From the NCBI GenBank assembly GCA_033580375.1, contig GCA_033580375.1_4527.1: DNA of 64,000 bases. One strand, written 5' to 3'. Within the stretch, counting starts at the first letter, position 1; every line of letters begins with the position of its first letter. A program made the position numbers and the translations under genes. Source of the DNA: a phage. Positions 22,553 to 49,818 of this stretch are shown here, piece after piece. Under the pieces are notes generated by a model, which saw only the letters and a program-made list of their open reading frames with translations, had not been told where the DNA came from and made no database searches.

Positions 22553-23653
22553 TTACGCTGTGAAGATTTTATCCCACATTGCAACAACTGCATCTCGGTT
22601 ATACTTCTTCCATACTGCTTCAGCACGTTTAACTCGAGCTTCGTACGTGTCAGTGAATTCTAATACAGCTTTTGTGTAAAGCGCAACTACTTCTTTCTTA
22701 GGAGTAGAGGAATCAATTTCTACACGCACAGTATCTGGGTCATATTCGAATGTCGCATGCGGATAATCCTTAAAAACTAACTGAATTACAGGGACACCTT
22801 TAGAGATGGCTTCAATAGAACTATTCTCTACCGTACCCGTGTCAGGACACGTATTAATAAGTGCTTTAGCTGTTTTAAGACGTTCCATGATTTCACTGTG
22901 TGGAGCATCAATAATAACAGGATACTTAGCTGGTGGTGCCCATTTGCTTGGACAATAACCAATACCATTTTCGCCTAGTGCTTTAATCGCTTCAAGAGCA
23001 ACATCAGTACGACGCATCTTAGTGTCATAACGTTGAGCACTAATAATCAAATCAGTTGCTGGAAGAACTTCAGGTTTCTCATTCAAACAAATAACCGGAT
23101 AATCTTCGGCTTCAAACAACGGATTTGCTCGCCAATAATCATAATCAATTTTGTCAGTCAGACCCGAAGTCATATAACAATATTTACGTTCAAATTCACG
23201 GAAGGCTTTAGTAGGAGCATAACTCTTACCACCATTCTTATGAATTTGAATAGTCTGGTCCCAAATTTGAACAATGCCACGAGATACCGGTTCAAATGGT
23301 GTTGCCATAAAATTCTTATGAACTTTAGAGAGACCTGCGTCTTTAATTGCCTGAACGGTTAGTTTGGTCGGTTCCATTGTAACAACGAAATCGTACTCAT
23401 TAATGCCGGCTAGTTCAACAATCTTACGAGCCATAGTATAACTCATACCTAGACTGAATTTAGTCAGATGACCAACAGGATGGTGTGTAACTTTCCAATC
23501 ACCAAATGTGTCATTATCAAAACCAATATAATCAATATCAGCACCGATGGACACAAGATATTTCAACACATTTAAATGTACTGCTTCAAGACCACCTTGT
23601 ACACGCTCTGGGTTAAACGGGACTGCGCGAGATGGGATAAACATAACTTTCAT
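22553..23653 (-). CDS. Putative GT-B-fold glycosyltransferase (candidate DNA hmC glycosyl/arabinosyl-transferase)
   Basis: 366 aa at the rIIA-39 junction where T4 carries gene 60/mobA; C-terminal E..SIEAISKGVPVIQ resembles the GT1/GT4 E-x7-E donor-binding region; size typical of GT-B enzymes. Confidence 0.5.
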   Translation of the reverse strand: MKVMFIPSRAVPFNPERVQGGLEAVHLNVLKYLVSIGADIDYIGFDNDTFGDWKVTHHPVGHLTKFSLGMSYTMARKIVELAGINEYDFVVTMEPTKLTVQAIKDAGLSKVHKNFMATPFEPVSRGIVQIWDQTIQIHKNGGKSYAPTKAFREFERKYCYMTSGLTDKIDYDYWRANPLFEAEDYPVICLNEKPEVLPATDLIISAQRYDTKMRRTDVALEAIKALGENGIGYCPSKWAPPAKYPVIIDAPHSEIMERLKTAKALINTCPDTGTVENSSIEAISKGVPVIQLVFKDYPHATFEYDPDTVRVEIDSSTPKKEVVALYTKAVLEFTDTYEARVKRAEAVWKKYNRDAVVAMWDKIFTA

Positions 23654-41663: not shown

Positions 41664-42026
41664 TTAAAAGAATTTAAATTTTTTCTTGGTTCGTTCATTA
41701 AAAGCTTGTTGTACCTGCATTGTAACACATTTTTCAACATGCGGCGCAAGTTCTGCTTTTCTGTCCTGGTCAAGAACTGCAAAGTCCATTACGATTTTAC
41801 CATCAACCCAGTCTAGTTTTGTAATATAGACTATATGATGAGAACCGTCTTCAAGTGTAATCAGAATCTCTTGAATGACGTTTTCCATTGCTGAACGGAT
41901 AATTTTAAGAGATTCATTAAACACTCGTTCTTTGCGAATGTCTTCCCCTTCCGAAGAAGGGGATTCATCAACGATTTCTAGATTTAAATCATCGAGATTA
42001 TTCATCGAAATCTTCCATTTCGTCAA
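41664..42026 (-). CDS. hypothetical protein at the gene 40 position
   Basis: 120-aa track ORF between uvsX and 41; assignment positional only. Confidence 0.4.
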   Translation of the reverse strand: MTKWKISMNNLDDLNLEIVDESPSSEGEDIRKERVFNESLKIIRSAMENVIQEILITLEDGSHHIVYITKLDWVDGKIVMDFAVLDQDRKAELAPHVEKCVTMQVQQAFNERTKKKFKFF

Positions 42027-43170
42027 GGTCGTTTTCTATATCTGCTGCAGATGGAGCATCAGAAGTTTTAACCGGAACTTTAGTTGTTGCTTTGCAATTA
42101 ATAAGGTCGTTAACTGCGTCATCAACTTCTTTAATAGAAGAGATAGCGCCTAGTTTATATTTAGTTTCAATTGCATCTCGGAAAGGTTTGTGTTTAAACA
42201 ACGGTCCCCAGAATTCTACGCAATCAGTAGCTTTAGCACGCCATGATTTCTCTTCACGAATCATTTCACCTGTTTCTTCGTCAAGGAATTCACGAGCATA
42301 CCAACCGGCTTTAGGTTTAACCACAAAACCAATTTCAGTTGCCATTTCTAACAAGCCACTGAATGGGTCAATACCGCCATCAAAATTAACCGTGATCGGG
42401 AAAGTAGATTTCTCTTTAACAGTACGAGATTTTTCTGCTTTCAACGTGAAGTCATAACCGGTCAATTCTGTACCTTCTTTAACCTGACGTTTAGAGATAA
42501 AGAATACAGTGTTAGCAGAGTAAAGAATACCTGTACCACCACCCATAATCTCTTTAGGATATAGTCCACCGATTTCCATTGCTGTATGGTTAATTGCAAC
42601 ACATGGAATATCTTTAATAGTCAGATACGGGGTCACAATACGGAACAGAGATTTAAGTGCCTTAGCACGAGACATATCACCTACGACTTTCTCGTTCAAT
42701 GCATCTTCGGTTTCTTTCTTAGATGCAGTATTACCGATTGAATCGATAAAGATAATAACTTTATCACCGCGTTCAATAGCGTCAAGCTGATTAGTCATAT
42801 CAACTTTAAGTTGTTCGACGGACTGAATTGGTGTGTGAACTACACGGTCTAAATCAACACCCATTGAACGAAAATAAGATTCTGAAGCACCGAATTCTGA
42901 ATCATAGAACAAACAAATTGCATCTTTATATTTCTTCATATACGCTGCAACCATGGTCAGCCCAAACAATGTTTTAAAATGTTTAGAAGGTGCAGCAAAA
43001 ATAGTCAAGCCTGATTGCAATCCTGCATTCAGAGCACCACCTAGTGCAATATTCAACATCGGAATACGAGTAGGGACTTCATCGCGATTATTAAACAGCT
43101 TAGACTTAGTCAAGTCTGCAGTCATTTTAGAAGTAGAAGCTTTAATCAGACGAGATTTTAAATCAGACAT
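41998..43170 (-). CDS. uvsX: RecA-like recombinase UvsX
   Basis: 390 aa (T4 UvsX 391 aa); N-terminus MSDLKSRLIKASTSK.TA.L.KSK.FN..D...RIPMLNIALGG; RecA core. Confidence 0.9.
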   Translation of the reverse strand: MSDLKSRLIKASTSKMTADLTKSKLFNNRDEVPTRIPMLNIALGGALNAGLQSGLTIFAAPSKHFKTLFGLTMVAAYMKKYKDAICLFYDSEFGASESYFRSMGVDLDRVVHTPIQSVEQLKVDMTNQLDAIERGDKVIIFIDSIGNTASKKETEDALNEKVVGDMSRAKALKSLFRIVTPYLTIKDIPCVAINHTAMEIGGLYPKEIMGGGTGILYSANTVFFISKRQVKEGTELTGYDFTLKAEKSRTVKEKSTFPITVNFDGGIDPFSGLLEMATEIGFVVKPKAGWYAREFLDEETGEMIREEKSWRAKATDCVEFWGPLFKHKPFRDAIETKYKLGAISSIKEVDDAVNDLINCKATTKVPVKTSDAPSAADIENDLDEMEDFDE

Positions 43171-43269: not shown

Positions 43270-43818
43270 TTAACGAGCCCATTTGATGATTTCTGTAATC
43301 AAATCATTACGTTCGCTTGCATTAAATCCTATAACTTTGTTAGCACCATCATGATTAAGTAATTGATACGTTTGGATTTTGTTATGAATTGCAAACTCTT
43401 CAAAATGTGAAATGACTGTATTAAAACTGAGTGAAGACAAAGTAATAAGATCGTCTTCAAAACTTTCAGTCATTTCGTTACGTGTTAAAATAATTGTGAA
43501 CACGTCATGGTTTTGGCAAAGACGAACATAATCCTGCTCATAAACATCAAGAACCGAGTCCGCATCTTGTCGAATACGTCCATAAACCCAGTTACTAATA
43601 TATCCACGGTCTAACAGATAAATCTTAGTAGGGTCTAAATAATTCAACATCGTTTCGAAACAACCAACTTCATTTCGAGACTTAACATCGAAACGTCCAT
43701 CAACTGTTCGTTTAGGGAAATCAATCTTTACATATCTTTCACTAATTTCCATTATGACATTAATGAAAGTTGTTTTGCCGGCATTATCTGGGCCATCTAC
43801 TAAAATAATTTTAGCCAT
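43270..43818 (-). CDS. P-loop kinase-like protein (thymidylate/dNMP-kinase fold); function unknown
   Basis: 182 aa; Walker A ILVDGPDNAGKTT near N-terminus, DRGY motif (LLDRGYISNWVYG) like the DRY/DRX motif of nucleoside monophosphate kinases. Occupies the slot of T4 beta-gt. Confidence 0.5.
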   Translation of the reverse strand: MAKIILVDGPDNAGKTTFINVIMEISERYVKIDFPKRTVDGRFDVKSRNEVGCFETMLNYLDPTKIYLLDRGYISNWVYGRIRQDADSVLDVYEQDYVRLCQNHDVFTIILTRNEMTESFEDDLITLSSLSFNTVISHFEEFAIHNKIQTYQLLNHDGANKVIGFNASERNDLITEIIKWAR

Positions 43819-43819
43819 T

Positions 43820-44716
43820 TTATTCCTCGATTACGACATCTTCGTATTTAGGTATATTATACGGCGAAGAAATTAAAGCATTAAAGTAGATGAACTCACC
43901 AAGACCTGGATGGAATACTTCTTCAGGATTTTCGAAATATTGAATCTTCGGACGTCCTTTAAGAATTTGATAGTACTCAGTTTTAGTTGGTTTAAAAATT
44001 CGAATCAGCGCTTCTTCAGGATACTTATTTCTGTCGAAGCTATTATTTGGATCGGTTATATAAAGTGGTTGTCCTAATTGAATTGCACATTCAACCACTT
44101 GTTCAAAATGATAACACGGATCACTAATTCGAAATGGATGAAAAATACCATCTACATGAATAGGAGCCAAATCACCTACAAGACGCTGCATGATGGAAGG
44201 ACGTATAACTTTCTGCGTTACGATAATCTTATTATCTGCGCCAGCGTTAACCAGCACTTCTTTTTGACGTTCATTCAACACAGTAGTTTGAAGTGAACGA
44301 TTAACCGACAACATGTCGGTTTTTAAGAATTCGTCAATATAAAAACGTGGTTTATTAGGGTCTGCAGTGATATTGAAATTGAATTCTACATCAAAAGCGC
44401 CGTCATATCCAGTGATATCTGTGATTAGAAAATCACAATCATAATAAGCAATTAATGAATCAACAACAAATTCATTTTCAGACCAGAAATATTTACGAGT
44501 GTTATACGCGTTATCTTTATACCATAATGGAACAAACTTAAATTCTGGGAAAAGACGTTCACATTCTTTAATATCAGATGCATTACGTGGATATGTAATC
44601 ACATCACCCGGATTAGCACGGTGCAAATGAAGTTGGAAGTTGCCATCCTTAAGGATAGCATACTGTCCAGTTTCATAAGACCGCATACTCAAGATTGGTA
44701 CGCGGAAAATAGCCAT
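43820..44716 (-). CDS. hypothetical protein (298 aa) in beta-gt position; no motif recognised
   Basis: Track ORF tightly packed (2-nt gap to next gene, 1-nt overlap with gene 42 homolog). Confidence 0.4.
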   Translation of the reverse strand: MAIFRVPILSMRSYETGQYAILKDGNFQLHLHRANPGDVITYPRNASDIKECERLFPEFKFVPLWYKDNAYNTRKYFWSENEFVVDSLIAYYDCDFLITDITGYDGAFDVEFNFNITADPNKPRFYIDEFLKTDMLSVNRSLQTTVLNERQKEVLVNAGADNKIIVTQKVIRPSIMQRLVGDLAPIHVDGIFHPFRISDPCYHFEQVVECAIQLGQPLYITDPNNSFDRNKYPEEALIRIFKPTKTEYYQILKGRPKIQYFENPEEVFHPGLGEFIYFNALISSPYNIPKYEDVVIEE

Positions 44717-45432
44717 TAGTCAAGGAATCCTTTAACATAATCAAAATCACGTTCAAACACATGGGCACTTACCATGGTATGAGTATAATCACCAACTTCT
44801 ACACCGCATTCGTTAGCGATATAATGAAGTAATTTTCCTTGGAGATAAAAATCCAACTGCATAACAACAGCACAGTTCTGAGAACGCATATGACAGTGGG
44901 TATAAAGCTTACCATCACGAATATAATAAGTCACTGAGTCAGTACATGGATATTCAAGTGTTTCATCTGAATCAAGCAAAGCCTGATCAGAACTTTCTAG
45001 AATTTGGAACACAACTCTTCGAGAGTTAGGTTTTTCTTTAAGTTCTTTTAGAAGAGCTGGTAATTGAGCCGCAATGCGAGGACCATAGAAAGTGTTGAAG
45101 TTTGCAGGCAAAGCATCTGATTTTGGTTTAGAAATAAATTTAGCGACATTAGGATATGCCTTAAACGCTTCTTCTGCATCAGTACCACCGGAAATCATAA
45201 ACTTCCAGAAGTCTTCGGCATATTCATAAGATATGCGATTAATACGTGGGTCGGTCATTTTGAATGATGATGGAGTGTCAACAACTACTGTCATAGACCC
45301 AATTTCATTACAACGTCCAATACGAGAATCAGTTACGAATTCTGGGTTTTCTAAAATTTCACGATTGACTGCTTTAAATGCGGTTTGAAAATCTGCGGCT
45401 TTGATATATTTCATTGTGTTATGTTTTCCCAT
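44716..45432 (-). CDS. 42: dCMP hydroxymethylase (thymidylate-synthase superfamily), gene 42 homolog
   Basis: 238 aa; catalytic region YPCTDSVTYYIRDGKL...HMRSQN...MQLDFY aligns by eye with T4 gp42 FMCTNTVQYLIRDKKI...NMRSND...FRNDY (Cys148 nucleophile, Asp179 equivalent retained). Confidence 0.7.
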   Translation of the reverse strand: MGKHNTMKYIKAADFQTAFKAVNREILENPEFVTDSRIGRCNEIGSMTVVVDTPSSFKMTDPRINRISYEYAEDFWKFMISGGTDAEEAFKAYPNVAKFISKPKSDALPANFNTFYGPRIAAQLPALLKELKEKPNSRRVVFQILESSDQALLDSDETLEYPCTDSVTYYIRDGKLYTHCHMRSQNCAVVMQLDFYLQGKLLHYIANECGVEVGDYTHTMVSAHVFERDFDYVKGFLD

Positions 45433-45557
45433 GTTTACCTCAATACAATTTATTATATACTCAATTCGTAAAGCTTATTTGAATTTCTTGGCAATGTTGA
45501 TATAACGTAAAGCTTCAGCATCGATACTTCCAAGAACACTATGAAGAAATGCATCAG

Positions 45558-45713
45558 CTTAGTATTCTAATTGAACAGGTTCTTTAATCACTTTAGCCGC
45601 TTTGGTTTCAAACAGGCCCATAAGGGCCTTTTTAAGAATTTGTTCGTTAGTGTTCAGTTTCATAGTCAAAATCTCTTCATTAAGTTTATAATTAAAAGCT
45701 TTTCTAGAAATCA
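45558..45713 (-). CDS. small ORF (~51 aa) translationally coupled (ATGA) to the U32 gene; coordinates approximate
   Basis: Hand translation MISRKAFNYKLNEEILTMKLNTNEQILKKALMGLFETKAAKVIKEPVQLEY; start overlaps U32 stop. Confidence 0.25.
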
Positions 45714-46871
45714 TTCCGGGTACCTCAAAGCGTCATCAGAGTTAGTTATATCAATAATAGATATGGAGTTTTCTGCTAACCCGTTTTTAGATAATTGACG
45801 TTTGTAATATCTTTCACAATATGTACACGTTGACCCACAGATTTCATTAGCACAATCGAAATCCGGATGTCTGAACCACCTTTTTTCTAAAAAGCCATCT
45901 AACAAAGAGGTTTCAATATTTACTGTATGTGAAAACTCAGTCTCATTTTCAAGAGTGAAAATAGTCTCTAAAGGCTTCCACAGTTCTAACAAATTACCTT
46001 CAAACTTTTCAGAAGCGTATGCTTCAAGAACTTTCAAAATGTAGTCTGTGCTACCTGTACGTCCTGAAACTTTGAATTGAGTGATACCAATATCATTATA
46101 AAGTTTCAAATCTTGAGGACGAACAAAACGAGTTCTCAGCCAGTTAAATGGGTCTGTATCACGAGCTTTAATGCAGTGTTGCATTGGATATCCATTTAAG
46201 GATTTAGCATCATCAGCGGTAACATCAGTACTATGGAAAATATAGCAAGAGTCACGATAACTACAATGTGTTGTATACCCTTTACCAGCATTAGAACAGA
46301 ACTCATTTACAAGAACTTCAAATATTATATTGTTCTTATTGCAAAACTCTGCTGCACGCTTCAGGAAAGAAACTGAACGGTTCTTATGAATTCCACAGCA
46401 GACCTTTTTGATATTATATTGGTCATGCAAGTATTTGATTTGAGTTACGGCATCAACATGTAGAATTGTTGAAACTTCAATCTCAATATCTTTATTGACT
46501 TCACGAACAATTTCCATAACAACAGGGTTAGCGATAGTAATACGCCATACACCTATTGACCAAAGATACTGAACATAATCCTGAATAGCTTTCTTCTTCC
46601 ACTCAACTAGTTCTCTTTTTGAACCAGGATTTATCGTGTTGAGTGTATAGTTAAAGCAAATACCTAATTCGTTACAACGTTTAACATAGTCTTCTAACAT
46701 TTTTTTGTCAACGTCAGGAAGCCTAAAATCAGGTCTGGCTGCTACAAAAGCCATTTCTCTTGTAGAGCCATATACTTCGTTTATCAAGCTATTAGGATAA
46801 GTTTTATTGAGCTCTACGATTTTATCAAGAAGAGCTAAATCAAAATTCGTTCCGATTTTAAAAGTATTCAT
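45711..46871 (-). CDS. Peptidase-U32-family protein (RlhA/TrhP/UbiU-like putative oxygen-independent hydroxylase)
   Basis: 386 aa; N-terminal TIM-barrel signature NEVYGS...FVAARPDF...ICFNYTLNTI (cf. U32 DAVY.G...NAR.F...YVTLNTL), central ITIANPVVMEIVRE...EIEVS and Cys cluster EFCSNAGKGYTTHCS, plus C-terminal CANEICGSTCTYC. Confidence 0.6.
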   Translation of the reverse strand: MNTFKIGTNFDLALLDKIVELNKTYPNSLINEVYGSTREMAFVAARPDFRLPDVDKKMLEDYVKRCNELGICFNYTLNTINPGSKRELVEWKKKAIQDYVQYLWSIGVWRITIANPVVMEIVREVNKDIEIEVSTILHVDAVTQIKYLHDQYNIKKVCCGIHKNRSVSFLKRAAEFCNKNNIIFEVLVNEFCSNAGKGYTTHCSYRDSCYIFHSTDVTADDAKSLNGYPMQHCIKARDTDPFNWLRTRFVRPQDLKLYNDIGITQFKVSGRTGSTDYILKVLEAYASEKFEGNLLELWKPLETIFTLENETEFSHTVNIETSLLDGFLEKRWFRHPDFDCANEICGSTCTYCERYYKRQLSKNGLAENSISIIDITNSDDALRYPE

Positions 46872-46929: not shown

Positions 46930-47331
46930 TTATAGATTCGGTTTATACGATTTAAATGTTTCGAATTCGCCTTTATTCATAAGAGCTTTGAATTCGTCAG
47001 GACGCATAGCTTTGTCGTCGATAATCCAATCATATACTGGTTTATGTGTTAGCAAATTATGGTACTTCAAACCAATGTTTTCCAAGTTCTGAATCAGACT
47101 TGGGAGAATGTCAATTGCTATACGACCAGGACCTACTGACTTCATACCACGAGCAGTGTAAAGCGTTATGGTATGCCCTGCATCATACAGGGCATTAATG
47201 GCGGTCACCATTTCGACGTCTGGTTTGAAGTTCGCGTAATCACGATTGTTATTCCATTCCGTGATGCAATCATCGACATCAAAACAAAGATTAAGCATGT
47301 TTTCTACACGGCGCATTAGATTCGTTCCCAT
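46930..47331 (-). CDS. HAD-superfamily phosphatase (KdsC-like sugar-phosphate phosphatase)
   Basis: 133 aa; HAD motif I FDVDDCIT, motif II LYTAR, motif IV YDWIIDD. Confidence 0.6.
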   Translation of the reverse strand: MGTNLMRRVENMLNLCFDVDDCITEWNNNRDYANFKPDVEMVTAINALYDAGHTITLYTARGMKSVGPGRIAIDILPSLIQNLENIGLKYHNLLTHKPVYDWIIDDKAMRPDEFKALMNKGEFETFKSYKPNL

Positions 47332-49001
47332 TGATGAGTGATATCGCCACCGATTGGACGATAGGAAACACCAGTTTCTTTATCAGTTAGTACCCATTTA
47401 CCAGGATTTTTTGTAATCAGAGTAGCCGTTACAGGTTCTGCTACGTCATAACTAATAGAGCCGTCTTGAAGTACACGACCCATGTTACGTAATTGCTTAG
47501 TCAGAAGTTCCATACCTTTATAATATGCGGCTACCGCTTTAAGTGGATTATTCTTGAAATAACCACCTAATGCAATCCAGATAATCGCCACTGCCAAATG
47601 ATGATACTCGTTAAACGAACTCATCTTTCCATATTTGTAAACTAATGGATTGATGTTAATAGTCACATTACAAGTTGTTTCGTCAATAGTAAACTGTCCC
47701 CAGGTCGGATTAGCATTGAATTCATCATAACCTGAAACAGCATAAAGCACTTTAGCTTCATCGTACAATTTTGGCCCGTAAATCTTGGTTTCACCAAAAT
47801 ATCCACGAGGGTCGATAAACTTGACTTCGCCGTTATCAGTAATCATAGTATTACTGAAGTTCGGGTCACCGTGAATAACAGAGTACTGTCCCTGAGAACG
47901 GTTATGATAACGAATAAGGTGTTCTAAAGCTTGTTTCAACATTGGCTTCAGACGTCCAATCTTAGTGTAGTTCACATGTGTGATTTTACCAAATGAATCA
48001 ATCAATGGTTGAATGCTTTCACAACGATCAATAACTTTCGTATAGAATTCTTTAGTGAAATCACGACGAACAGTTTCAGGACTTACAAAATAAATGTCTG
48101 TGCTGAATTTCAGTGCATCTAAAATTGCATCAACAATTTGTGGACGAGCAAGACTTGATTTGGATTTAATATATTCAAATGCTGGCTTACCTTTAATGCG
48201 TTCCATTTCAAAGTTATTTTCATTAACAGAAACTAACTGAGGAACTGAATCTGATTTTACTTTCAAATACCATGAAATCTCATCTTTTTGAAGAGCTCGT
48301 CCCTGTTCTGTTAATGCGAATTTAGTTACAGTTTCTTCACCAATTTCAACTGCATTAAAACTACGATTAAGTTCACGAACTTCATGAGCCTTTTCAAGTT
48401 TAGGCATATCACCTAAATCAATTAGATTCATAAGCTCTGATTTATTGAATGCACTGCCGTAAAGGAATTCTACAAAATCACGTCCTTTACAGTATTCGTG
48501 AATTTCCTCGTCAGTAGAACCCATGTAGAATTCCCAGTCTTTGAACTGATAAATTCCTACAACATTACCGCCTGTTGAACCTACGTTAGTGATATTTTCA
48601 CCATCGAAATTATATCGACATTCATCACCCTTAACATAGATTGCGTTAACATTCCAAGACCATGAACCAAAATCTGGAATAATATCACACCAGTTAACAA
48701 CTACGTTATGGCCGTCTAAATCTTTATGTAATTTAGCAAGAGCATAAGCAGAACCATACGCTTCATCAACTGTACGAATAGTCACATTGAACCCTTCTTG
48801 CTCACAATAAGCTCGAACAGTTTCAGCAAATTTTGAATGAACTACTACAATAATTTCATCTGCACCAAGGTCAGAATAAATTGTATACAAATTGCTCAGA
48901 ATAGTGTCTTGTTTATAGTTCACAAGAACTTTTGGAATATGGTGAGTAATTGGATATAAACGAGTTGCCAGTCCAGCACCAAGAATAACAGCTTTTTTCA
49001 T
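47316..49001 (-). CDS. Bifunctional sugar-1-phosphate nucleotidyltransferase (N-terminal) / sugar kinase (C-terminal, APH/ChoK-like)
   Basis: 561 aa; N-terminus KAVILGAGLATRLYPITHHIPKVLV matches the RmlA/GalU G-x-G-T-R-L signature; C-terminal HGDPNFSNTMITDNGEVKFIDPRGYFG resembles the catalytic loop of aminoglycoside/choline/anomeric-sugar kinases. Confidence 0.7.
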   Translation of the reverse strand: MKKAVILGAGLATRLYPITHHIPKVLVNYKQDTILSNLYTIYSDLGADEIIVVVHSKFAETVRAYCEQEGFNVTIRTVDEAYGSAYALAKLHKDLDGHNVVVNWCDIIPDFGSWSWNVNAIYVKGDECRYNFDGENITNVGSTGGNVVGIYQFKDWEFYMGSTDEEIHEYCKGRDFVEFLYGSAFNKSELMNLIDLGDMPKLEKAHEVRELNRSFNAVEIGEETVTKFALTEQGRALQKDEISWYLKVKSDSVPQLVSVNENNFEMERIKGKPAFEYIKSKSSLARPQIVDAILDALKFSTDIYFVSPETVRRDFTKEFYTKVIDRCESIQPLIDSFGKITHVNYTKIGRLKPMLKQALEHLIRYHNRSQGQYSVIHGDPNFSNTMITDNGEVKFIDPRGYFGETKIYGPKLYDEAKVLYAVSGYDEFNANPTWGQFTIDETTCNVTININPLVYKYGKMSSFNEYHHLAVAIIWIALGGYFKNNPLKAVAAYYKGMELLTKQLRNMGRVLQDGSISYDVAEPVTATLITKNPGKWVLTDKETGVSYRPIGGDITHQWERI

Positions 49002-49041: not shown

Positions 49042-49185
49042 TCTAGTTAAAGCATTCATACTTTGCTTGTAGTCCAATCATAATCCATCCAATTACAAGT
49101 GTTGGAATCATTACTGGAGCCGTTAAGCTCCAGTAGATAGTCATGACAAGCATCAATAGTAAAAGTCCTATTGTTATTGCTTTCA
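49042..49185 (-). CDS. small hydrophobic membrane peptide (~47 aa), ATGA-coupled to the SIS-domain gene; coordinates approximate
   Basis: Hand translation MKAITIGLLLLMLVMTIYWSLTAPVMIPTLVIGWIMIGLQAKYECFN. Confidence 0.3.
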
Positions 49186-49818
49186 TTGCTCGCCTCGTAA
49201 CATGGCACCTAGAGCACCGCCAGGGTGGAACTTAAGGAAATCATTAGAGGTAAATCCACGTTCAGACGAAAGGTTGATAGCAAACGTATCGATAAGCGCT
49301 AACAACAATGTAGTGGACATGGTCGGAGCTAAAGAGTTCTCGTCAACTTCTACCGCGATACCGGTACAGAACGTATAATCAAAAAGAGCTTCGTATTCTT
49401 GCGGAATGTCAGGGTTACAATGTAACAGAATCTGTTTAACCTGAGGACGAATCATACGAAGATGTTTAGCAACACCTATCATTTCTTCAGTCTTACCAGA
49501 ACGACTGATGTGAACTAATACATCATTAGGTGCAATAAATCCTGCGTCGCCATGAGAATAATGCCCAGTGTTCAAATACATGCTAGGAATACCGAGTGAA
49601 GCAAATGTCTCAGAAGCTTTAGTTGCAATATTAGCATTCTTACCAACACCTGTAATAATTACACGACTTTCATAATTACTCAGTCCAGGGCGTCGAAGAG
49701 TTTCAAGAATAGCATTATAACGAGCAGGGTTTTGACTAATTACTTTGGCCATAGCGGCCAAAGAAGAAGCTTGTTTTATGATTGCGTCAATAGCGATAGT
49801 AATAGGAGTAGTTTTCAT
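49183..49818 (-). CDS. SIS-domain sugar-phosphate isomerase (KpsF/GutQ/KdsD-like arabinose-5-phosphate isomerase, no CBS domains)
   Basis: 211 aa; SIS motifs VIITGVGKNANIATKASETFASLGIPS...HGD...DVLVHISRSGKTEEM and C-terminal HPGGALG. Confidence 0.7.
   Translation of the reverse strand: MKTTPITIAIDAIIKQASSLAAMAKVISQNPARYNAILETLRRPGLSNYESRVIITGVGKNANIATKASETFASLGIPSMYLNTGHYSHGDAGFIAPNDVLVHISRSGKTEEMIGVAKHLRMIRPQVKQILLHCNPDIPQEYEALFDYTFCTGIAVEVDENSLAPTMSTTLLLALIDTFAINLSSERGFTSNDFLKFHPGGALGAMLRGEQ

Follow-up and report, generated by a model that had tools for sequence, protein, structure and literature searches.

A thymidylate-kinase-fold protein and a putative arabinosyltransferase in the beta-gt slot of a Mosigvirus

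T4 carries its beta-glucosyltransferase gene between uvsX and gene 42 (uvsX-segA-b-gt-42), and the question raised by the locus studied here is what fills that place in a relative of RB69, and what it does there. We analysed a 64,000-nucleotide stretch of phage DNA (the window), which belongs to a Mosigvirus (RB69/HY126-like) with 97–98% DNA identity to Mosigvirus genomes. An earlier note on this DNA had placed two minus-strand ORFs in the slot, one encoding a 182-aa protein with a Walker A and a DRGY motif and the other a 298-aa protein. Both are where it put them, between uvsX and the homolog of gene 42, a thymidylate synthase (TS) family protein. The gene order of the surrounding cluster matches that of HY126.

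The locus and its genes

The genes of the locus, and one further gene of the pathway, are as follows.

41998-43170: uvsX, flanking the two ORFs
43270-43818, minus strand: 182-aa ORF, putative nucleotide (dNMP) kinase of thymidylate kinase (TMK) fold; ortholog of RB69 gp45
43820-44716, minus strand: 298-aa ORF (GT1), predicted compact GT-B (GT4-like) glycosyltransferase; ortholog of RB69 gp46:47, DLP3 gp79 and Thanatos TH1_063
44716-45432, minus strand: 238-aa TS homolog ("gene 42 homolog"), by signature a flavin-dependent 5-hydroxy-dCMP synthase; ortholog of RB69 gp48
45711-46871, minus strand: 386-aa peptidase-U32-family protein (RB69 gp50), accessory cluster member; Pfam Peptidase_U32 E 7e-11, PHROG 5757
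46930-47331, minus strand: 133-aa HAD-type phosphatase (AfhF-like, RB69 gp51); NCBIfam capsule biosynthesis phosphatase E 1.5e-13, PHROG 1238
47316-49001, minus strand: 561-aa bifunctional sugar-1-P nucleotidylyltransferase and kinase (AfhE-like, RB69 gp52:53); Pfam NTP_transferase E 8e-10, weak APH-type kinase matches
49183-49818, minus strand: 211-aa arabinose-5-phosphate isomerase (API; RB69 gp55); NCBIfam KpsF/GutQ E 9e-32, KdsD E 4e-30
22553-23653, minus strand: 366-aa second arabinosyltransferase (RB69 gp3/ORF003c type), 20 kb away; E 2e-249 to PDB 9iqz/9ir0 "phage HY126 glycosyltransferase"

Transcription runs from the TS homolog through GT1 and the kinase gene to uvsX, and the first three of these are translationally coupled. 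The start codon of GT1 shares sequence with the stop codon of the TS homolog (TAATG), not with that gene's start as previously described; a single nucleotide rather than 2 separates the GT1 stop from the kinase ATG (GAGGAATAAAATG; junction TAA-A-ATG), and a GAGGA lies inside the 3' end of GT1. Both ORFs are real rather than chance ORFs, because homologs at 34–99% identity occur across phage records (344 for the kinase and 351 for GT1) and the AlphaFold models of both proteins are confident. A scan for sigma-70 promoters and terminators from 41.9 to 50 kb returned 26 sites, no excess over the 30.4 expected from shuffles, and we therefore make no claim about operon boundaries.

The earlier note took the modified base to be hmC, a premise that the neighbouring gene does not bear out. 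The TS homolog differs from PDB 9iqc/9ir2 by a few substitutions along the whole of its 238 aa (E 4.5e-162), but is only 25% identical to T4 gp42. Its active site reads MRSQN...QLDF, that is, D169N and N177D in E. coli ThyA numbering, where T4 has MRSND...RNDY. Judged from these residues, D169N marks the protein as a flavin-dependent 5-hydroxy-dCMP synthase rather than a dCMP hydroxymethylase, and this synthase activity has been demonstrated for RB69 gp48 (PMC13326640). According to the literature on orthologs, such a TS homolog hydroxylates C5 of dCMP, and UDP-arabinofuranose, the product assigned to the 561-aa AfhE-like protein, is prepared from arabinose 5-phosphate by AfhE- and AfhF-type enzymes, the role of the AfhF-type HAD phosphatase being described in PMC13326640. 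The upstream isomerase step is, in that literature, a proposal from structural similarity. The window holds all of the UDP-arabinose genes (API, AfhE-like, AfhF-like) as well as the second glycosyltransferase. Virion DNA of the ortholog phages bears beta-Araf-(1->3)-alpha-Araf-O-5-dC, and arabinosylated 5-hydroxycytosine (5hoC) has been found by LC-MS/NMR in the DNA of RB69 and of Mosigvirus NP (PMC13326640, PMC13390438).

As an aside, genes for U32 and chorismate mutase may point to an anaerobic route of hydroxylation. The U32-family protein occurs in 222 phage records, none of them from Acinetobacter. At the position equivalent to that of chorismate mutase, this window has a 51-aa ORF that shows no similarity to it.

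The two proteins

The suggestion that the 298-aa protein is a divergent glycosyltransferase agrees with its predicted structure, a GT-B fold of two Rossmann-like domains with an NDP-sugar site in the cleft. Searches gave no Pfam, NCBIfam or PDB-sequence match, even with a 35-sequence profile; Glycos_transf_1/Glyco_trans_4 and the canonical E-x7-E are both missing, and the equivalent region reads H269-P-G-L-x-E/D274. R196 (in FPFRISD) and K245 are invariant in the family and are a candidate diphosphate-binding Arg/Lys pair. T4 beta-gt (GT63), in the same genomic slot, has no sequence similarity to GT1 (blastp E>3), and the T4 beta- and alpha-glucosyltransferases are longer (351 and 400 aa, against 298). 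GT1 would differ from them also in its substrates, the putative acceptor being the ring 5-hydroxyl rather than a hydroxymethyl group and the donor a pentofuranose nucleotide. Net charge, tried as a test for a glycosyltransferase that acts on DNA, does not discriminate (pI 5.1 for GT1, 9.05 for T4 beta-gt and 6.1 for T4 alpha-gt). RB69 gp46:47 and DLP3 gp79 are known as "alpha-arabinosyltransferase 1", and GT1 is putatively the first (base-proximal, alpha) arabinosyltransferase. When the DLP3 glycosyltransferases, the GT1 ortholog gp79 among them, were assayed one at a time on 5hoC-DNA, they transferred arabinose from neither UDP-Araf nor UDP-Arap (PMC13326640).

Residues 9–16 of the 182-aa protein read GPDNAGKT and residues 70–73 DRGY, and the protein's reported resemblance to thymidylate and dNMP kinases is confirmed by a TMK three-dimensional fold whose closest structural counterparts are mononucleotide kinases. 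All of 22 homologs keep G9-x-D11-x-x-G14-K15-T16 and D70-R71, which align to the vaccinia TMK motifs, and in the alignment TMK catalytic residues fall on K15/T16, D11, the FPKR Arg, R48 and the D70-R71 clamp. The P-loop Asp, whose TMK equivalent contacts the deoxyribose 3'-OH, is kept, as is the Arg equivalent to the one that reads thymine O4. Compared with thymidylate kinases (vaccinia A48R, PDB 2v54; human TMPK), however, the protein is only 14–19% identical, lacks ~19 residues of the alpha2-alpha3 NMP-binding region, has DRGY rather than DRY, and carries N12 where class I has its P-loop Arg. Nor can an Arg-rich LID be made out; the invariant R113 is the only basic-residue candidate after strand 4. 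Scores fall below the family thresholds (PF02223, 12.5 bits against 27; TIGR00041, 18 bits against 83), and the protein is therefore a TMK-fold relative and not a curated dTMP kinase equivalog. Searching all PDB chains with the sequence and a profile gave P-loop-level matches only. T4 gp1 (PDB 1dek/1del) is not the closest match in fold or sequence; the likeness to the gp1 family (RB69 gp159) is one of function, that of a phage dNMP kinase acting on C5-modified dCMP. The orthologs, RB69 gp45 and DLP3 gp78 ("nucleotide kinase"; PMC13326640 Table 1; RB69p045 in PMC8056088), are 97–98% identical within Mosigvirus, occupy the same position and give the same TMK-like fold matches, with nothing substantive to set them apart.

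Distribution and linkage

For 48 distinct GT1 sequences, each flanked by 1.5 kb or more, we counted partner genes within 3 kb. A hydroxylase-type TS was near GT1 in 47 of the 48 loci and the kinase in 44, abutting GT1 in 32. The linkage of kinase and GT1, a check proposed in the earlier note, is thus tight, and extends to the modification genes. The hydroxylase-GT1-kinase triad is found also in loci without any arabinose genes, with a flavodoxin-like gene or other sugar genes instead; the kinase therefore tracks the base and the first sugar, not arabinose synthesis. Kinase and GT1 co-occur in unrelated backgrounds as well (a jumbo-phage contig, L004; triad-only metagenomic contigs; a second clade of hydroxylase loci), and matches to the two have the same host distribution. 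In T4, the region from gene 41 to gene 43 contains no kinase-like ORF. Dhakavirus and Marfavirus have TS or U32 between the kinase and GT1. Morganella phage MP1 has a kinase with 54% identity and all motifs in the same slot, and its genome has no hydroxylase, no GT1 and none of the rest of the pathway.

When 185,579 prokaryotic genomes were scanned for GT1, the only hits were two MAG contigs (120 kb and 167 kb), and GT1 therefore appears to be restricted to phages; both contigs are probably mis-binned phage DNA, one of them matching the genome size of T4-like phages. Two candidate relatives were rejected. A 211-aa ORF downstream of a Rhizobium-phage glycosyltransferase is treated as no more than a positional analogue of the kinase (hhalign probability 9.5%, Pfam TMK E 0.03), and the ~430-aa proteins of the second hydroxylase clade resemble GT1 only in a RISD...ITD motif (hhalign probability <1%).

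What the pair may do

We consider it probable that the two ORFs follow the hydroxylase gene as genes two and three of a coupled core (hydroxylase, GT-B, TMK-fold kinase) within the arabinosyl-5-hydroxycytosine cluster, with GT1 attaching the first arabinose and the kinase acting on 5-hydroxy-dCMP (5hodCMP). UDP-Araf would be the donor from which GT1 transfers that first (alpha) arabinose to the 5-hydroxyl, and the 366-aa enzyme (22553-23653) would add the second. Using ATP, the 182-aa kinase would convert the C5-substituted dCMP (5hodCMP) made by the neighbouring synthase to its diphosphate and so, together with the gp1-type dNMP kinase, help to supply precursors for replication. The RB69 gp1-type kinase phosphorylates 5hodCMP, and together with the TS homolog it is enough to place 5hodC in E. 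coli DNA; this would make a further kinase reserved for 5hodCMP superfluous, which counts against this explanation. The single-enzyme negatives from DLP3, a report of UDP-xylose synthesis by the Thanatos GT1 homolog, the lone kinase of MP1 and the sub-threshold TMK scores count against it also.

It is unlikely, in our judgement, that the kinase is instead a general deoxypyrimidine-monophosphate kinase paralog (for dCMP or dTMP, for example) with no role in modification, its position reflecting a plastic pol-uvsX region. MP1, with the kinase in this very slot and the pathway absent, speaks for it; in its catalytic residues, among them the equivalent of the thymine-O4-reading Arg, the protein matches ordinary TMKs, and public annotations name it thymidylate kinase. 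Yet its distribution is near-perfectly common to that of GT1 across 340+ genomes, including the unrelated backgrounds, it is translationally coupled to GT1, and T4-type hmC phages appear to be without it, going by the host distribution of matches and the T4 scan. Of the outcome that the earlier note would have taken as a refutation, an ordinary dNMP kinase unconnected with modification, half is borne out: the enzyme looks mechanistically ordinary and occurs alone in MP1, but elsewhere it is strongly linked to the modification cluster.

Rather improbable is a pre-replicative route, in which GT1 would arabinosylate 5hodCMP, the TMK-like kinase would be dedicated to arabinosyl-5hodCMP, and the polymerase would incorporate a glycosylated dCTP analogue. 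To our knowledge the phage DNA glycosylations described so far are all post-replicative (T4 alpha/beta-GT), which counts against it. This route would nonetheless give a job to a second kinase that has no obvious one while the gp1-type enzyme covers 5hodCMP, since bulky arabinosyl-5hodCMP would be beyond the latter. The kinase abuts GT1 in two thirds of the loci (32/48) and is coupled to it, the triad is retained whatever the sugar, and loss of the ~19 residues from the NMP-binding region might make room on the C5 side of the pocket. The experiments of PMC13326640 leave first arabinosylation on the mononucleotide and after replication undistinguished, and single enzymes were inactive on 5hoC-DNA; those in vitro negatives, however, are given as "not shown" and may have trivial causes. 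MP1, with the kinase but neither GT nor hydroxylase, and Dhakavirus and Marfavirus, where TS or U32 parts the kinase from GT1, also speak against it. If true, this module would be the first in which DNA is glycosylated through its precursors.

The 298-aa protein is very improbably a sugar-activating UDP-pentose pyrophosphorylase rather than a transferase. That activity was assigned by its authors to the GT1 ortholog TH1_063, the purified protein having yielded UDP-xylose, detected by LC-MS, from UTP and xylose-1-P (PMC12838424), and its Thanatos-2 counterpart TH2_066 (300 aa, same position) is a member of the GT1 family (E 1e-121). The assay was qualitative, however, and the acceptors tried had no 5-hydroxyl. 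GT1 has a predicted GT-B fold and no nucleotidyltransferase (Rossmann-like GT-A/NTP_transferase) match, it occurs in loci without genes that produce sugar-1-P, and a bona fide NTP-transferase domain is already supplied by the 561-aa protein, the activity of HY126 AfhE having been shown in the literature.

That the kinase, a P-loop enzyme adjoining base-modification genes, acts on DNA by analogy with 5-hmdU DNA kinases, phosphorylating the modified base or a sugar there to open the way to more hypermodification, is scarcely credible: its closest structural matches and its invariant DR clamp and 3'-OH-binding Asp are those of mononucleotide (dNMP) kinases, no phosphate leaving group is needed for the ether-linked sugar in which the pathway ends, the C-terminal domain of AfhE is credited with phosphorylating the sugar (PMC13326640), and clusters without arabinose genes have the kinase too.

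Both genes are already-described parts of the RB69-type pathway that replaces cytosine with sugar-decorated 5-hydroxycytosine, and not a new kind of system. The comparative results narrow the options for the kinase, which follows the hydroxylase and the first glycosyltransferase regardless of the sugar, yet stands alone in MP1. Arabinosylated 5-hydroxycytosine is a recently solved chemistry of phage counter-defence, effective against restriction enzymes, DNA glycosylases and some CRISPR systems, and the modification is common among T4-like therapy candidates that infect E. coli, Klebsiella, Acinetobacter or other hosts.

The beta-glucosyltransferase slot and its neighbours

The two open reading frames that the earlier note placed at 43270-44716 lie exactly there on the minus strand. 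The region matches many Mosigvirus (RB69-like) genomes at 97-98% identity and has the gene order of phage HY126. The same interval in T4 reads uvsX-segA-b-gt-42-imm-43, so the note was right that they occupy the b-gt slot. The genes considered here are as follows.

22553-23653, minus: second glycosyltransferase (RB69 ORF003c type), essentially identical to the crystallised HY126 glycosyltransferase (PDB 9iqz/9ir0)
41998-43170, minus: uvsX, downstream of the kinase in transcription order
43270-43818, minus: kinase, 182 aa, GPDNAGKT at residues 9-16 and DRGY at residues 70-73
43820-44716, minus: GT1, predicted glycosyltransferase, 298 aa, intact open reading frame
44716-45432, minus: thymidylate-synthase-family protein (TS homolog), 238 aa, upstream of GT1 in transcription order
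45711-46871, minus: U32-family protein (RB69 gp50 ortholog)
46930-47331, minus: HAD phosphatase
47316-49001, minus: bifunctional nucleotidyltransferase/kinase
49183-49818, minus: arabinose-5-phosphate isomerase

[quoted passage not shown] Transcription runs from the TS homolog through GT1 to the kinase. The adjacency noted earlier holds; the spacer between the GT1 stop and the kinase ATG, however, is 1 base rather than 2, and the start of GT1 overlaps the stop of the TS homolog (TAATG), not its start. This overlap, together with the 1-base spacer and a GAGGA Shine-Dalgarno within the GT1 3' end, means that the three genes are translationally coupled.

The premise that the TS homolog is a gene 42 hydroxymethylase, and the modified base therefore hmC, is outdated. 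The protein shares only 25% identity with T4 gp42 and is nearly identical to PDB 9iqc/9ir2 from end to end (E 4.5e-162). Its active site reads MRSQN...QLDF, whereas that of T4 gp42 reads MRSND...RNDY, corresponding to Asp169 to Asn and Asn177 to Asp in E. coli ThyA numbering; judged by these signatures, it is not a dCMP hydroxymethylase. The D169N class of TS homologs makes 5-hydroxy-dCMP using flavin and O2 (Lee et al., NAR 2026, PMC13326640). RB69 DNA, for which arabinosyl-hmC was initially proposed (PMC6024577), is now known to carry beta-D-Araf-(1->3)-alpha-D-Araf ether-linked to C5 of 5-hydroxycytosine (PMC13326640), and a Mosigvirus from the Durham collection gave the same modification result (PMC13390438).

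Predicted functions of the kinase and GT1

The description of the 182-aa protein as P-loop nucleotide-kinase-like is borne out. It matches PHROG 761 "thymidylate kinase" (E 2e-44), while scoring far under threshold against the curated Pfam and TIGRFAM thymidylate kinase (TMK) models. In TMKs of known structure (human, vaccinia), the P-loop Asp contacts the deoxyribose 3'-OH, Arg residues hold the NMP phosphate, and an Arg reads thymine O4. Profile alignment to vaccinia TMK (PDB 2v54; 78% probability, E 1.7e-5) pairs GPDNAGKT with GLDKSGKT, FPKRT with FPQRS, S-R48-N-E with N-R-W-E, and L-D70-R71-G-Y with V-D-R-Y, although the phage protein has a deletion of ~19 residues in the alpha2-alpha3 NMP-binding region. 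The TMK-equivalent residues are invariant in 22 homologs (down to 43% identity), except the FPKR Arg, which is Lys or Ser in three. On this alignment and conservation, the protein reads as a mononucleotide (dNMP) kinase in every computational test applied. The ortholog is listed as "RB69p045, nucleotide kinase", and was said in 2021 to "presumably participate" in modification (PMC8056088).

GT1 is classed as unknown in PHROGs and has no match in Pfam, NCBIfam or PDB sequences, even with a 35-sequence profile, nor is any sequence relationship to T4 beta-gt detectable. An AlphaFold model from 35 homologs is confident (pLDDT 93.7, pTM 0.88) and predicts a GT-B fold, and residues invariant among homologs, including R196 (in FPFRISD), TDPN221-224, K245 and H269, are compatible with a GT4-like diphosphate site. 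The earlier guess of a divergent glycosyltransferase is thus upheld by the predicted fold and by the literature: RB69 gp46:47, DLP3 gp79 and the single Thanatos glycosyltransferase are published as "arabinosyltransferase 1", an assignment we reproduce for the putative GT1. The split of gp46:47 in the RB69 reference is stated to be a sequencing error, which fits the intact frame here.

Linkage across phages

By tblastn, 344 phage records carry the kinase and 351 carry GT1, and the host distribution is the same for both. Loci were taken from IMG/VR using GT1, the hydroxylase-type TS or the kinase as anchor, supplemented with reference phages, and scanned with custom HMMs; counts refer to 48 distinct GT1 sequences flanked by 1.5 kb or more on each side. 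A hydroxylase-type TS lies within 3 kb of GT1 in 47/48 and a kinase in 44/48 (directly adjoining in 32), which bears out the suspected link of both genes to modification; only 35/48 loci hold an AfhE-type arabinose gene. Gene order varies between phages and the genes stay clustered: TS-GT1-kinase in Mosigvirus, Acinetobacter phages, Thanatos and a 355-kb jumbo contig, HAD-kinase-TS-GT1 in Dhakavirus, and HAD-kinase-U32-CM-TS-GT1 in Marfavirus. About 12 metagenomic loci consist of no more than a flavodoxin-like gene followed by TS, GT1 and kinase, and the 10 kb around them is free of arabinose genes. From these loci and the linkage counts, we conclude that the kinase goes with the hydroxylase and the transfer of the first sugar, irrespective of which sugar that is, rather than with the making of arabinose.

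On three metagenomic contigs with TS-GT1-kinase and without arabinose genes, a gene for a Flavodoxin_2 protein (NAD(P)H-dependent FMN reductase-like) lies upstream of the hydroxylase, immediately so in L037:8799-9290 and L041:8539-9051 and ~5.8 kb away in L004:1-523; such a neighbour fits a flavin-dependent hydroxylase needing reduced flavin. A second hydroxylase clade has TS, a ~430-aa protein, sometimes an epimerase, a PHROG-761 kinase and 1-3 NAD-epimerase/dehydratase genes, possibly for a different sugar on 5-hydroxycytosine. The ~430-aa protein is unannotatable, its sole resemblance to GT1 being a RISD...ITD motif (L084:6215-7531, L089:10684-11982, L101:10747-12039 and neighbours). Four GT1 loci have no member of the kinase family, and two of them (Rhizobium phage RHph_Y68 and L107) carry a ~211-aa TMK-like P-loop frame at the same position, paralleling the published RL38J1 gp214-216. 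In two metagenomic loci, GT1 bears a ~185-aa N-terminal extension (L086:11223-12851, L093:10716-12371; a weak HAD-hydrolase match in one) and is followed by isomerase and AfhE-like genes, with no separate kinase gene in L093. Another locus (L049:3615-6198) has TS (MRSQS, not MRSQN), GT1 and UDP-galactopyranose mutase without a kinase, an arrangement reminiscent of the galactofuranose chemistry reported from Rhizobium phage RL38J1.

Proposed pathway, rivals and a possible anaerobic route

In the literature on orthologs, the TS homolog converts dCMP to 5hodCMP, a gp1-type (T4 gp1-family) kinase is able to phosphorylate 5hodCMP, AfhE- and AfhF-type enzymes make UDP-Araf from arabinose 5-phosphate (the isomerase reaction that would supply the latter from ribulose 5-phosphate is a proposal), and later arabinoses go onto DNA. 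We favour, with some reserve, a combined reading in which the putative GT1 would transfer the first alpha-arabinofuranose to the 5-hydroxyl and the TMK-like kinase would phosphorylate 5-substituted dCMP, channelling the hydroxylase product, probably with relaxed pyrimidine specificity.

Such relaxed specificity would account for Morganella phage MP1 (Gualtarvirus, NC_031020), where the order is pol, two small frames, kinase, uvsX. Its kinase (L125:20500-21030) is 54% identical to that of the window (E 1e-75) with every motif intact, and a whole-genome scan (L125-L128) found no GT1, hydroxylase-type TS or arabinose genes, the sole TS being canonical td. MP1 thus shows that the kinase can persist in the absence of the pathway, which lowers the odds that its substrate exists solely in glycosyl-5hoC phages; that it is an ordinary pyrimidine-NMP kinase paralog is a rather unlikely alternative. 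Less probable again is glycosylation before replication, in which GT1 would act on 5hodCMP and the kinase would take the resulting glycoside; DLP3 glycosyltransferases assayed singly did not modify 5hoC-DNA, a caveat for the GT1 assignment too, and the authors cannot tell first arabinosylation on the mononucleotide from that on DNA (PMC13326640). A GT1 pyrophosphorylase, prompted by the report that the Thanatos homolog TH1_063 forms UDP-xylose from UTP and xylose-1-P (PMC12838424), is very unlikely given the predicted GT-B fold and the genuine nucleotidyltransferase domain in the 561-aa neighbour; in Thanatos-2 the counterpart of TH1_063, TH2_066 (300 aa, at the corresponding position), belongs to the GT1 family (E 1e-121). 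The earlier suggestion of a kinase acting on DNA bases or sugars is scarcely credible, as the aligned and conserved residues look like those of a mononucleotide kinase and unlike either.

The 222 phage records with the U32-family gene all belong to phages of Enterobacterales or Shewanella, and the gene is absent from 57/57 Acinetobacter phages carrying GT1 and kinase. In most U32-bearing genera a genuine ~80-aa chorismate mutase adjoins it (Pfam CM_2, 39.5 bits vs cutoff 27), and the two travel as a pair, as in Thanatos; besides the window, the loci behind this U32 and mutase comparison are L131:5658-5903, L132:6001-7391 and L006-L028. The mutase is absent in the window, where its position in other genera (45475-45714, minus) instead holds an unrelated 51-aa frame (45559-45714) with no family match and an in-frame TAA followed by 27 codons to the next stop. 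RlhA and TrhP are U32 family members, and prephenate is the chorismate mutase product. In RNA, these two enzymes place a hydroxyl on C5 of cytidine and uridine, independently of O2 and using prephenate (PMC13602947), while the TS-like hydroxylase requires O2 (PMC13326640). Taken with the U32-mutase pairing, this suggests, as a testable idea, that phages of facultative anaerobes may have an anaerobic, prephenate-dependent route to 5-hydroxycytosine complementing the O2-dependent hydroxylase. The idea was not found in the literature searched on this pathway; in PMC13326640 gp50 appears as a "sugar or heterocycle reductase", and the words U32, prephenate and chorismate do not occur there.

The literature already contains both genes, with fold-level assignments for them and the fact that they co-occur with modification genes (PMC8056088, 2021; PMC13326640, 2026). 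The earlier note's observation, kinase-like and glycosyltransferase assignments and modification link stand, without the hmC premise and the DNA-kinase analogy. The linkage analysis is the new part of the present work, and the residual interest lies in the putative activities of the kinase and GT1 themselves.
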